In this document: one piece after another, positions 27,651 through 29,613 of the stretch
Layout of the letters: the number at the start of each line of letters is the position of its first letter
Position numbering within the stretch: position 1 is the first letter of the stretch
From: a phage
Assembly (NCBI GenBank): GCA_014437165.1
Contig: GCA_014437165.1_4090.3
Strand: one strand, 5' to 3'
DNA length: 64,000 nt
Notes under the pieces: model-generated
What the model was told of the DNA's origin: nothing
Database searches by the model: none
Seen by the model: the letters and a program-made list of their open reading frames with translations, nothing else
Program-made: the position numbers and the translations under genes

Positions 27651-27835
27651 TTAAACACAAGTAGACAGGGGAAGCTCCTAGTGAACAACCTTTATGTACA
27701 GGCGAATTGTTAAAATTCAGCCTGGACAAATGCGATCACTAGGATTCTCCCCAGGCTAAACCCCGTAATCATAGGTAGTCATAAGTAATCATATATAAAC
27801 ATTTATATGAGCACCGTAGAATCACAGAATGATTA

Positions 27836-28315
27836 TATATGATTCAGTACTGATTAGTATAGACAAGATTGCTCAAGAATGCACGGAAATGTGTGTGAAT
27901 GATTCAGTACTGATATGCCACTAAGTAGGCAGAGGAAGTCTGCCGTACTTTGTAGTTTCCAAGCTCCTTTTCCATTTTCAAATTACATCAAATGTAATCA
28001 AAAGTAATCACGCAATGATTAGTACTGAATTATTACTTTCACCTTAATTACAATTACCCTTTTACCCTTCGGGGTAAAATTCCATTACCCCTTGAGGCTC
28101 CAGCAAAAAGTTGGTTAGTACTCCATCCTAAATCTCGATCCTAAAAATTTTGGAGTACCTATGAAATAAAAGTTGGATCTTCGAAAGTTGAAATTTACGT
28201 TGGGACGTTTATGATTTGTGGGATATAATGATGTTTGTAGACGGGTAGTTCTCAAGAATATCAGTACTGAATGGTGAAAGAAAGTTATTGACATTATGAT
28301 TCAGTACTGTATAAT
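27836..28315. repeat. cluster of palindromic (T)CAGTACTG(A) boxes, several in the form ATGATTCAGTACTG
   Basis: Copies seen near 27841, 27901, 28018, 28261, 28300 and further ones to ~29460; region has no ORF of 60 aa or more. Confidence 0.55.
28288..28315 (+). promoter_or_regulatory. sigma70-like promoter inside the non-coding region (possible sRNA promoter)
   Basis: TTGACA ~28288-28293, 16-nt spacer containing TCAGTACTG, TATAAT ~28310-28315. Confidence 0.45.
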
Positions 28316-28679
28316 GTTCTACATAGGGTGATGAGTTGCTGCGAACAATTCATTTACTCTACCTCCTGTCGTGAGACAGTACAGAAAAGATAGTTCCTCC
28401 TGTGGTGGTACATCTTTTTGAACCTCATATGAAAATCGTAATAACAGTACTGACATTAACAGAATGGTGTCAGTACTGATTTTAATCTAAAGCATTATGC
28501 CACCAGCTTGTGCTGGTGGATTCCCTCTAACAGTATTCAGTACTACATGATAGTCTTCATCCTCCTACAGTAACAGTGAGGGCTATTGTGGGAGTACTGA
28601 ATACTCCCTTCTTAAAGATAGATCTATGGTATAGTACTGACGGATTTTGGGCGTAGTAACCCTAGGTTGAATTTAGACG

Positions 28680-28840
28680 TAGAGATGTCTAGACCTCCAG
28701 ATGGCTGGAAGTAAAGATGGCTATCCCTCTAGGCGGCTGGATGGCTAGATTTCTAGATGGCTGTACTGCTAGACGTTTGGACGGCTAAACGGCTAGATGG
28801 TTACACGTCTGGATGTATAGACGGCTAAATCAAAATTTTT
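28680..28840. repeat. iteron-like array of ~9 degenerate 10-11-bp repeats (consensus roughly AGATGGCTRG / ACGGCTAAA)
   Basis: ..CCAGATGGCTGGAAGTAAAGATGGCTAT..GGCGGCTGGATGGCTAGATTTCTAGATGGCTG..GACGGCTAAACGGCTAGATGG..AGACGGCTAAAT, followed by an A/T-only tract at ~28840-28870. Confidence 0.5.
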
Positions 28841-29340
28841 ATTTTATTTTTTCCAATAGTTCCCCTACCGCGTGGGGATGGTTTCCCCGCAGTATCTGGA
28901 GTTAGATTTTTCTGAATCTGGAATCATTATCTAATAAACTGGGGGCAATGTCAACCGCCTGGATGAATAATTTTAAAAAATAATCTAGTACTGAATTTTA
29001 GATACAACTATGCACCCGGTGGGCTAGAGTCTTTCTCGACTTGATGAAACTATTATACAGTACTGAAAAAATAAAGCAATACCCTAAACGCAAAAAGTTT
29101 TAATTAATTTGCTTGCCATCCTGGGGCGTACTATGATACTATTATTCAGTACTGAGAAAGTGCTATGACCTGCTAAGGTGCGGGAGTGTATCCTTTTTAA
29201 ATTTACTGAATTTTGGGCGTAATTCCGCACCCCCTGGGGTATCCGCTTTCTCGCGTCTATGTAGTAATTATACGCTTTTTTAGTACTGAGTCAATAGCTA
29301 AAAACAAAATAATTGAAAATAATTTAACGCGTTTAAACGG

Positions 29341-29430
29341 CCCGTAAAGCCCTGGTTAGCTGGTGGCGGTGCAAATGTATAGCTTAGGTGTATTAATGCG
29401 TTAGAATGCGATTGAGGACGTTTTACGGGG
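29341..29430. repeat. ~90-bp element bounded by inverted repeat CCCGTAAA/TTTACGGG, containing a Chi octamer and a CGTTAGAATGCGATTGAGG box
   Basis: Terminal 8-bp inverted repeats read directly; internal boxes recur at ~35300-35350 and ~39029-39110. Confidence 0.45.
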
Positions 29431-29528
29431 TATAGTACTGAATCAGTACTGAAAGATTGTTCTCCCTGGATTGTTCCAGTACTCCTATATAGAAAGAAAA
29501 CTATTTTAAAAGTATTTGTAGAAAGTAC

Positions 29529-29587
29529 TTGCAAAGTATTGGGAAAGGTGTAGAATGTTTTACATCGAGACGGGGGAGACGCTCCCG
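29529..29587 (+). promoter_or_regulatory. promoter + leader-hairpin cassette
   Basis: TTGCAA 29529-29534, 16 nt, TAGAAT 29551-29556; hairpin CGGGGGAG-ACG-CTCCCG 29571-29587. Confidence 0.6.
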
Positions 29588-29613
29588 ACTCACTTTTAAA
29601 AGAGATTAAAACG

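Follow-up and report, generated by a model that had tools for sequence, protein, structure and literature searches.

A predicted DNA-end control region with a MetJ operator-like array in the terminal repeat of a jumbo coliphage

What does a two-kilobase stretch of phage DNA do if it encodes no recognizable protein? This question is raised by positions 27651-29613 of a 64,000-nucleotide window of contig GCA_014437165.1_4090.3 (NCBI GenBank assembly GCA_014437165.1), read on one strand; all coordinates below refer to this window. The first-pass annotation, made from the letters of the window, had proposed a replication origin or regulatory hub, built on an iteron-like array next to an A/T-rich tract. 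It missed that the region straddles the boundary of a 21-kb terminal repeat, i.e., the end of the packaged DNA. Taken together, our results make it reasonably likely that the region's untranslated leader is a DNA-end control module comparable to repeat region 3 of phage T5, with an array of predicted sites for the host repressor MetJ at its center.

We evaluated the source of the window and the position of the genome end through comparison to relatives. Megablast of 27651-29613 matched 42 phage records, 35 of which covered at least 80% of the query at 90–95% identity, and all of these were 310–384-kb coliphages or Salmonella phages of the 121Q/PBECO4 type. We assign the window to an Asteriusvirus, i.e., a 121Q/PBECO4-like jumbo coliphage; the hosts of its close relatives are E. 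coli and Salmonella. A 21-kb terminal repeat has already been published for such phages, determined from read coverage for G17 (PMC6563267), from PhageTerm and restriction digests for fEgEco12 (20,993 bp, PMC13070987), and from PhageTerm for Sharanji (PMC11895373). The G17 record contains an exact 20,668-bp direct repeat, with positions 1-20668 being 100% identical to 350150-370817. Window position 27924 corresponded to one record end in all six relatives compared (G17, fEgEco12, vB_Ec-M-J, ELP-22, E9.1, and WPEC5), and position 49020 to the other record end in five of these six. Since the determined ends of relatives map to both positions, 27924-49020 is almost certainly a direct terminal repeat, with the left end of the packaged DNA at 27924 followed by an untranslated leader. 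The window shows this repeat in collapsed form, as at a concatemer junction, and the region under study begins with 273 bp of unique DNA from the right end, followed by the cut site and by a 1,690-bp untranslated leader that extends to the gene at 29614:

27651-27923, unstranded: non-coding flank at the right end of the unique genome, immediately outside the terminal repeat
27904-27923, + strand: left cut-site motif TCAGTACTGA-TATG-CCACTA, with the packaged genome starting at 27924 (from the record termini of six relatives)
27924-49020, unstranded: direct terminal repeat, 21,097 bp in the window, with small early genes packed on the + strand (from relatives' record ends and the G17 repeat)
27924-29613, unstranded: untranslated terminal leader of the repeat, 1,690 bp (from the lack of a conserved open reading frame, conservation, and element order)

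The region is unannotated in the carefully annotated 121Q and G17 genomes, while automatic pipelines have placed tiny “hypothetical proteins” there, and we found no description of an untranslated leader of the terminal repeat in the literature that could be searched.

What does this leader contain? The feature on which its interpretation turns is a repeat array, described in the first-pass annotation as about nine degenerate 10–11-bp direct repeats at 28680-28840. Autocorrelation peaked instead at lags of 8, 16, 24, and 32 (0.53–0.62 vs a background of ~0.2, reached in 0 of 2000 shuffles), which resolves the array into 19–20 units of 8 bp and rejects helically phased 10–11-bp iterons:

28675-28826, unstranded: 19 tandem 8-bp met-box-like units with consensus AGACGGCT (autocorrelation and MetJ matrix)

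The units run AGACGTAG AGATGTCT AGACCTCC AGATGGCT ... AGACGGCT, following an AGAYGKCT pattern, and were too degenerate for Tandem Repeats Finder, which missed the array. MetJ operators consist of two or more tandem, unspaced 8-bp boxes with consensus AGACGTCT. We scored the array with a published matrix (Augustus & Spicer 2011) in which a box must reach at least one quarter of the consensus score (3.15 bits) and a site at least the consensus score (12.58 bits). Overall, 16 of the 19 phased boxes passed, for a total of 115 bits where 12.58 are required, and the longest unbroken run of passing boxes comprised 7 boxes and 55.8 bits, whereas shuffled windows reached at most 23.9 bits. Base frequencies in the half-sites of the array correlated with the published MetJ counts (r = 0.96), with shared preferences for A1, G2, A3, and C/T at position 4. 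No second array of this kind was present in the window. Going by its sequence, the array thus consists of 19 8-bp units that meet the published definition of MetJ met-boxes, and MetJ probably binds it. Natural MetJ operators usually have 2–5 boxes, and an array of 19 units fitting the operator definition, which exceeds the usual host operators several-fold in length, is new. BLAST of the array against E. coli genomes returned no match to met operators, which are too short for blastn. A MetJ homologue encoded by a phage was not detectable in 50,697 phage records, and no paper linking MetJ to phage DNA was found in the literature that could be searched.

Next, we looked at the distribution of this array. 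Comparable arrays occur in fEgEco12 (17 boxes), CBB (13), BF (14), pEa12 (15), GAP32 (13), and Yen9-04 (11), and both the slot of the array and its offset from the terminus are kept in other jumbo genera. Beyond jumbo phages, the T7-like phages PGT2 and phiKT carry 9 boxes at 38–109 bp from the record end, and the T5-like Vibrio phage Pontus and Aeromonas phage AhSzq-1 carry 16 and 28 boxes, respectively; in AhSzq-1, AGTACT boxes also adjoin the array. Long arrays (≥7 boxes) in IMG/VR were mostly found in contigs of ~36–42 kb, 109–119 kb, and 350–378 kb, with one in a 64-kb contig; for short degenerate patterns, which gave many chance matches in IMG/VR, we kept only loci with array or hairpin context. 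MetJ is known from Enterobacterales, Pasteurellales, Vibrionales, Aeromonadales, and Alteromonadales (PMC4239095), and the host genera of the 69 phage records with array-like matches all belonged to MetJ-bearing orders but one, that of Xanthomonas phage XbC2 (OP292654.1), a jumbo phage 84.6% similar to Erwinia phage Kaldavass whose met-box-like array lies at the usual offset (647-756).

In two Klebsiella phages, Muenster and Kae01, the array slot is filled by a different repeat, of the GAGAATGATTCTCATT type, matching the 19-bp Fur box with 3–5 mismatches. Fur-box matches numbered 6 in Muenster and 4 in Kae01, vs 0.1–0.2 expected, and 3 in T5 repeat region 3, vs 0.03 expected. These Fur-like palindromes are located at 787-900 and 1073-1100 in Muenster, 700-800 in Kae01, and ~9470-9640 in the T5 record. 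Single strong Fur-like boxes were also seen near +1030 in BF and Kae01. The leader of the window contains no Fur boxes.

Is the leader truly non-coding, and is it conserved? On the + strand, 27651-29613 contains no open reading frame of at least 60 amino acids, as the first-pass annotation had stated. Of ten relatives, nine have stops within the 113-amino-acid minus-strand frame (29298-29639), and fEgEco12, the tenth, does not align to it as a single unbroken frame; small frames of the region had no Pfam match and a single marginal PHROG match (E = 0.004). A protein-coding reading was rejected on these grounds, i.e., a minus-strand frame broken in relatives and small frames without a family beyond the marginal match. 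Compared to five relatives (75–95% identical), the leader showed an identity of 0.8–0.96 per 50-bp bin, equal to that of the downstream genes and well above that of the DNA just outside the terminus. The region holds 21 direct-repeat families and 75 inverted pairs, and the order of its elements, measured from the terminus, is common to Mimasvirus (CBB, GAP32), Eneladusvirus (BF, pEa12), Alcyoneusvirus (Muenster), and the 7t3-like Kae01. Specifically, a terminal ...(G/A)AAGTC... motif comes first, then a AAATTTTGGAGTACC box, a sigma-70 promoter close to consensus (+270 to +390), a GAATTTTGGGYGTA box, a repeat array (~+690 to +920), a stretch rich in A/T or T, and a module composed of TTTCCAWTAGYTCCCCTWCCGCG, a stem-loop, and GCAGWATC; Kae01 lacks the terminal motif, and neither box is evident in Muenster. 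In the window, the boxes and the elements beyond the array correspond to the following features:

28143-28159, + strand: AAAAATTTTGGAGTACC box, which the window shares with CBB, GAP32, BF, and Kae01 (+110 to +240, counted from the terminus)
28644-28655, + strand: ATTTTGGGCGTA box, repeated exactly at 29210-29221, with related GAATTTTGGGTGTA boxes before the array in CBB, BF, GAP32, and Kae01
28827-28857, unstranded: A/T-rich tract adjoining the array, with shorter A/T- or T-rich stretches after the array in CBB, BF, and GAP32
28850-28896, unstranded: module of TTTCCAATAGTTCCCCTACCGCG, stem-loop, and GCAGTATC, with a two-helix hairpin at 28866-28894 (covariation)

The A/T tract directly after the array is the one pointed out previously (~28827-28857). 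For the stem-loop, nine sequences from at least five genera supported 9 pairs that were 96% paired, 5 of them with compensatory changes; none of 500 shuffles reached the real value, and slid controls displayed 18–42% pairing. This conserved stem-loop may act as RNA or as DNA. Overall, the leader reads as functional, conserved, cis-acting non-coding control DNA.

A C-rich motif, CCCCTYCYGCG, was observed after the met-box array in jumbo and T5-like phages (28862-28872 in the window, ~1523-1545 in AhSzq-1, ~460-480 in Pontus). The T5 record also has a C-rich motif at ~9655-9668, and the major 7.9% single-strand nick of T5 is annotated at CCCTGCGC in the same region. By this analogy the motif may mark a nick site, which is no more than a lead; the published study of nicked phages that we consulted deals with a Pseudomonas phage, not with jumbo phages of the present type.

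Around the genome end itself, the cut lies at 27923/27924, after CCACTA and 10 bp beyond the TCAGTACTGA box. A terminus after CC(A/G)CTA, downstream of a TCAGTACT(G) box, recurs in five genera, and the same arrangement, TTCAGTACT(G)...CC(A/G)CTA up to the terminus, is found in Muenster, CBB, GAP32, and Kae01. The window and Muenster both have ATTCAGTACTGATATGCCACTA before the cut and AGT... after it, while CBB, GAP32, and Kae01 have TTCAGTACT(G)...CCCCTTCC(G/A)CTA before the cut and TATC... after it. The AGTACT box ends ~9–20 bp upstream of the cut across the five genera, whose termini were each determined independently. A conserved terminase cut-site motif common to five genera is new, and allows the many Asteriusvirus records submitted in permuted or “circular” form to be oriented correctly and given their proper ends. 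Since an AGTACT box precedes the termini in five genera, at least some of the AGTACT palindromes appear tied to terminase cutting. The flank outside the repeat (27651-27923) is less conserved than the leader and includes a long inverted repeat (27662-27684 / 27736-27758), 10-bp GTAATCATAA repeats at 27765-27793, and two ATGATTCAGTACTGA boxes at 27839 and 27899; an RNA fold of 27651-27780 gave z = −3.86. At the right repeat boundary, where the cut comes after 49020 (...GGGTAACCT before, TAGCGAC after), a separate set of repeats was seen at 48880-49070, with inverted arms AAAAAAGTCAAGG / CCTTGACTTTTTT at ~48899 and ~48949, GCTTGACTTTTTA for a third time at 49051, beyond the repeat, and a AGTACTGA box at 48884. 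This right boundary bears no obvious similarity to the left cut site.

The AGTACT palindromes are not restricted to the genome end. In line with the first-pass annotation, which had singled out a repeated palindrome, the region contains CAGTACTG 9 times, AGTACTGA 14 times, and AGTACT 19 times, where its composition predicts 0.02, 0.04, and 0.66 occurrences, respectively; ATGATTCAGTACTG occurs three times (27839, 27899, and 28296). This enrichment is however not specific to the region: AGTACT is found 257 times in the whole window vs ~22 expected (~12-fold excess), mostly at 24–48 kb. There, it takes part in two early-promoter designs, abutting either the −35 hexamer (AAAGTACTTGCAA...TATAAT) or the −10 hexamer (TTGACA-N10-AGTACTGTATAAT), e.g., at 29524, 29986, 31219, 41918, 42114, and 45234. 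Between 24000 and 48000, AGTACT also often precedes terminators in the form of AGTACTGA. This pattern suggests a factor binding TCAGTACTGA. SlmA sites (GTGAGTACTCAC), a candidate explanation for the AGTACT boxes, were dropped as the flanking bases differ.

The promoters and predicted RNAs of the leader are as follows:

28288-28315, + strand: promoter P1, TTGACA-16-TATAAT, with AGTACTG abutting the −10 hexamer (12/12 matches)
28322-28485, + strand: predicted structured leader RNA, ~165 nucleotides, with two CCUCCUGU motifs, ending at a 14-pair hairpin (from the fold)
28926-28954, − strand: promoter-like TTGACA-17-GATAAT pointing to the hairpin and array (11/12 matches)
29044-29294, − strand: inverted early-promoter copies, then hairpins (promoter and repeat scans)
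29521-29613, + strand: first early promoter AAAGTACTTGCAA-16-TAGAAT (29529-29556), 5′ hairpin (29571-29587), and ribosome-binding region, ahead of the ATG of the first repeat gene at 29614

P1, already noticed at ~28288 in the first-pass annotation, is built like the early promoters of the repeat, and near-consensus promoters are found at +270 to +390 in other genera. The segment downstream (28322-28485), which would be transcribed from P1, folds at −50.8 kcal/mol (z = −3.93), and the inverted repeat pair reported near 28445-28480, CAGTACTGACA/TGTCAGTACTG, proved to be a 14-pair stem at 28445-28478. Three CCTCCT motifs, resembling an anti-Shine-Dalgarno sequence, were observed at 28362-28378, 28396-28412, and 28558-28566, i.e., two inside the predicted P1 leader RNA and one just downstream, and are kept in fEgEco12. 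The promoter-like site at 28926-28954 was not found in CBB-type leaders. Of the elements bounded by inverted repeats that had been described up to 29430, those at 28987-29294 are better read as inverted minus-strand copies of early promoters followed by hairpins. Two such promoter copies are TTGCTT-16-TATAAT (~29090 to 29052) and TTGACT-16-TATAAT (29294 to 29267), with an inverted repeat GGTGCGGGAG / TTCCGCACC at 29177-29231. Folding of these units was strong in the CBB counterpart (z = −5.09) and not beyond shuffles in the two window copies (z = −1.68 and −0.24). On the + strand, around twelve further promoter regions of the repeat are similar to 29521-29613. ARAGORN detected no tRNA gene in the region, in agreement with the earlier observation that tRNA-like T-arm motifs are missing, and an Rfam search of the region gave no match at the gathering score and no credible one when E was relaxed to 5, so that the tRNA or known small-RNA cluster raised by the first-pass annotation finds no counterpart in either search. 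Small leader RNAs are plausible.

Given a position at the end of packaged DNA, we also examined Chi sites and a 25-nucleotide box that the leader has in common with T5:

28500-28519, unstranded: Chi palindrome CCACCAGC-TTGT-GCTGGTGG, with Chi in both orientations, kept in fEgEco12 and Klebsiella phage Kae01 (+484 to +503)
29359-29366, + strand: Chi (GCTGGTGG), one of ten + strand Chi sites in the repeat
29399-29423, + strand: 25-nucleotide box CGTTAGAATGCGATTGAGGACGTTT, common to T5 repeat region 3

The first of these is the Chi-containing hairpin that the first-pass annotation had placed near 28500. On the + strand, Chi occurs 12 times in the window vs 0.2 expected, and 10 of these sites (28512, 29359, 35310, 39029, 40491, 41409, 43952, 45851, 47428, and 47651) are inside the repeat, where ~0.07 would be expected; the reverse Chi, CCACCAGC, is found at 28500 and 35248. 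By the established Chi orientation rule, the ten + strand sites are oriented toward RecBCD that enters at the right terminus (49020); the site at 28500, which lies 577 bp from the left end, is oriented toward RecBCD that enters at the left one. Such a density of correctly oriented Chi sites in a repeat segment is new, and the pattern fits a repeat built for resection and recombination with its twin. Several of the repeat Chi sites are intergenic or inside terminator hairpins, and the left repeat of T5 has two + oriented Chi sites, at record positions 8048 and 8610. The 25-nucleotide box, CGTTAGAATGCGNTNNAGGACGTTT, has 0 mismatches to the pattern at 29399, is found in T5 at ~9265, and has further copies at 35327 and 39084. 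In IMG/VR, it was found only in contigs of 95–122 kb (nearly all T5-sized, one being T5 itself) and in 121Q. The extra copies lie inside the repeat, at 35248-35351 and 39029-39108, each with an upstream Chi; the one at 35248-35351 is further accompanied by an inverted CCACCAGC...GCTGGTGG pair and by part of the box in inverted form.

On the other side of the genome end, ~15 tandem paralogous genes of ~60 amino acids (M-H/N-K-E-Y/F-Y...LLIYRY) occupy 24900-27650 on the + strand, directly upstream of the end, and despite this strand show a negative GC skew and a strongly positive AT skew; the one member tested (27459-27650) had no Pfam match. Further upstream, 12000-24900 on the − strand holds a block of ~380-amino-acid genes, RCC1-like “putative DNA condensation proteins” in the 121Q annotation. 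This block is the right-end module of the genome, and a GC-skew sign change at ~12 kb marks where it begins. Inside the terminal repeat, open reading frames all seem to be ~200 amino acids or shorter, hence a gene of the size of T5 A1 is absent; homologues of T5 A1/A2 were not searched for.

How might these elements work together? The untranslated repeat region 3 of T5 is a proposed injection stop signal with known DnaA boxes, a cluster that Davison found reminiscent of oriC. We consider it reasonably likely that the present leader is a DNA-end control module of the same kind, with a predicted MetJ array. Specifically, MetJ of the host, bound to S-adenosylmethionine (SAM), would polymerize on the array into a ~150-bp nucleoprotein block, 750–900 bp from the DNA end. 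The block would sit between the rightward P1, with its small structured RNA, and the leftward promoter copies, and would adjoin the A/T tract and the conserved stem-loop. The block, the cut-site boxes, and, for RecBCD control, the two-way Chi hairpin would together make the leader a DNA-end module handling terminase cutting, end protection, recombination, and host-state-dependent control of the first kilobase of phage DNA. The leader could then be the jumbo-phage counterpart of T5 repeat region 3, where host DnaA boxes and Fur-like boxes would hold the equivalent role. The Chi pattern also supports this reading of the leader as an end-handling module. That the role of the array is linked to the DNA end, rather than purely one of titration or replication, is our best guess, a serious possibility that we stop short of calling probable.

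Other explanations can be examined against the same data. For a replication origin, a protein array would melt the A/T tract, and the stem-loop would be a priming or helicase-loading site, as in RSF1010-type origins with their iterons, A/T region, and ssi hairpins. An order of array, A/T tract, and conserved hairpin kept in at least five genera is what this would predict, the A/T-rich candidate unwinding element is present at 28827-28857, and both the cumulative GC-skew minimum at ~27.5 kb and the oriC likeness that Davison saw in the DnaA-box cluster of T5 point the same way. However, the 8-bp units match a host repressor operator instead of the 17–22-bp direct repeats of iteron origins, and in the absence of a 10–11-bp period the iteron-origin reading of the first-pass annotation is unsupported. 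No DnaA boxes (TTWTNCACA) are found at 27.6–29.6 kb, nor are they enriched in the window; the region has no initiator gene or conserved open reading frame, and the one flanking gene checked on each side had no Pfam match. MetJ and Fur are not known to melt DNA. The GC-skew check suggested in the first-pass annotation did reveal a sign change at ~27.5 kb, but this coincides with the genome-end junction, so that the skew is uninformative on origin vs terminus and its minimum is equally well explained by the physical end. The T7-like relatives hold their array ~40–140 bp from the record end, in or next to the terminal repeat, and T7-type origins are not known to lie near the record end. Overall, we consider an origin highly improbable; what holds of the earlier proposal is its regulatory hub, i.e., a conserved non-coding control region with promoters on both strands and structured elements.

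If the array instead had no local role and served as a repressor sponge, its 2 × 19 boxes per genome would titrate MetJ and de-repress methionine and SAM synthesis. The size of the array, far above the two-box operator minimum, its location in a segment present twice per genome, the swap in relatives to operators of other metabolic regulators, and the methylation of DNA, hence consumption of SAM, by related jumbo phages would all be consistent with a sponge. Such a sponge is still unlikely, because it leaves unexplained the fixed slot and offset from the terminus in jumbo genera, the nearness to record ends in two T7-like phages, the flanking conserved boxes, and the covarying hairpin; we judge its extension, in which the Fur-box and DnaA-box arrays of relatives would do likewise for iron uptake and host replication control, to be unlikely as well. 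Very unlikely, in our view, is a site for a phage protein, i.e., a packaging or regulatory signal bound by the small terminase subunit or by a ribbon-helix-helix regulator and merely resembling met-boxes. It draws on the location of the array near the genome end in jumbo and T7-like phages, on the AGTACT boxes, probably bound by a phage factor, that flank the cut site, and on the short-repeat arrays beside the terminal repeats of T7 (SRL/SRR). Against it, the unit is common to three unrelated lineages with unrelated terminases and its base frequencies track the MetJ matrix (r = 0.90–0.97), no MetJ-like gene is detectable in phages, and Klebsiella relatives with otherwise the same organization use Fur-like boxes, a swap hard to picture for a terminase site. 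Finally, the region may be a small-RNA cluster, with several non-coding RNAs made from P1 and the inverted promoter copies, and DNA repeats that are by-products of promoter and terminator duplication. A consensus promoter followed by a strongly folding 165-nucleotide segment ending in a 14-pair hairpin, and minus-strand promoter copies followed by hairpins whose CBB homologue reaches z = −5.09, are in favor of this. Yet there is no Rfam match, the minus-strand units of the window fold no better than shuffles (z = −1.68 and −0.24), and the cut site, Chi sites, and met-box array are left unaccounted for, which makes a small-RNA cluster possible but doubtful.

Several observations nevertheless weigh against a DNA-end module with a MetJ array. 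MetJ occupancy of the array is a prediction from sequence alone. Most right half-boxes are GGCT and not GTCT, a variant seen in only ~10% of natural half-sites, and therefore the real affinity for MetJ could be below what the score suggests. Unlike natural MetJ operators, the array overlaps no promoter, and the next gene, ~790 bp further on, is without a met function, where proximity to a methionine gene would mean overlap or no more than ~75 bp upstream. Phage XbC2 carries an array and is attributed to Xanthomonas, whose order is not listed as having MetJ; it has either shifted hosts recently or runs counter to the pattern. Since several GenBank records may have been oriented by copying an earlier record, full independence of the six termini is not given. 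As for T5, met-boxes are missing from its region, which has DnaA boxes in pairs, Fur-like palindromes, and DRD repeats, while the leader has met-boxes and no DnaA boxes, so that the parallel is drawn from geometry, one 25-nucleotide box, and relatives. The two regions also sit at opposite repeat boundaries, with the left genome end cut here vs the right end in T5, and the neighboring repeat genes are transcribed away from the leader here and toward repeat region 3 in T5.

If the DNA-end reading is extended beyond this phage, we would tentatively propose that virulent phages with exact terminal repeats, in three unrelated lineages (Rak2-like jumbo, T5-like, and T7-like), set long operator arrays of cofactor-sensing host repressors within or next to their terminal regions, so that a filament of host protein gates or anchors DNA entry, end processing, or early transcription according to the metabolic state of the cell. 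The arrays would serve MetJ-SAM in the present phage and Fur-Fe in Klebsiella jumbo phages; T5 would use both Fur-Fe and DnaA-ATP. If true, this would provide a molecular basis for the T5 injection stop signal and for T7-type terminal short repeats. The recurrence of the array in or near the terminal regions of unrelated phages, together with the Fur-like swap, suggests a general principle by which abundant host repressors are recruited to phage DNA ends, and makes two old questions testable, namely the role of the T5 injection-stop region and the purpose of the short repeats beside T7-type terminal repeats.

How does the leader compare to known systems? With iteron origins of the plasmid or lambda type, it shares tandem direct repeats adjoining an A/T-rich tract and a hairpin beyond, but its period is 8 bp vs ~20 bp, no cognate initiator gene was identified, DnaA boxes are lacking, and its position is tied to the genome end. 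The resemblance to E. coli MetJ operators lies in tandem, unspaced 8-bp boxes near AGACGTCT that reach the published per-box and per-site scores, while the 19 boxes, the lack of overlap with a met-gene promoter, the mostly GGCT right half, and the phage-borne location near a DNA end set the array apart. The left-end leader of T7 has a terminal repeat, the SRL short repeats, and the strong early promoters A1–A3. Like it, the present leader is a left-end non-coding segment with a short direct-repeat array and inward host-type promoters ahead of rightward early genes; the T7 array differs in having a CCTAAAG-type unit outside a 160-bp repeat, whereas the array here lies 750 bp inside a 21-kb repeat. 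By analogy, T5 repeat region 3 is the closest known counterpart. Both regions are kilobase-scale, untranslated, and dense in direct repeats, inverted repeats, and palindromes; both straddle the boundary between terminal repeat and unique DNA (by ~270 bp in T5 and 273 bp here), are more conserved than neighboring small genes, and have clustered sites for host proteins, predicted ones in the present case. The T5-like phages AhSzq-1 and Pontus, moreover, carry met-box arrays like that of the leader described here.

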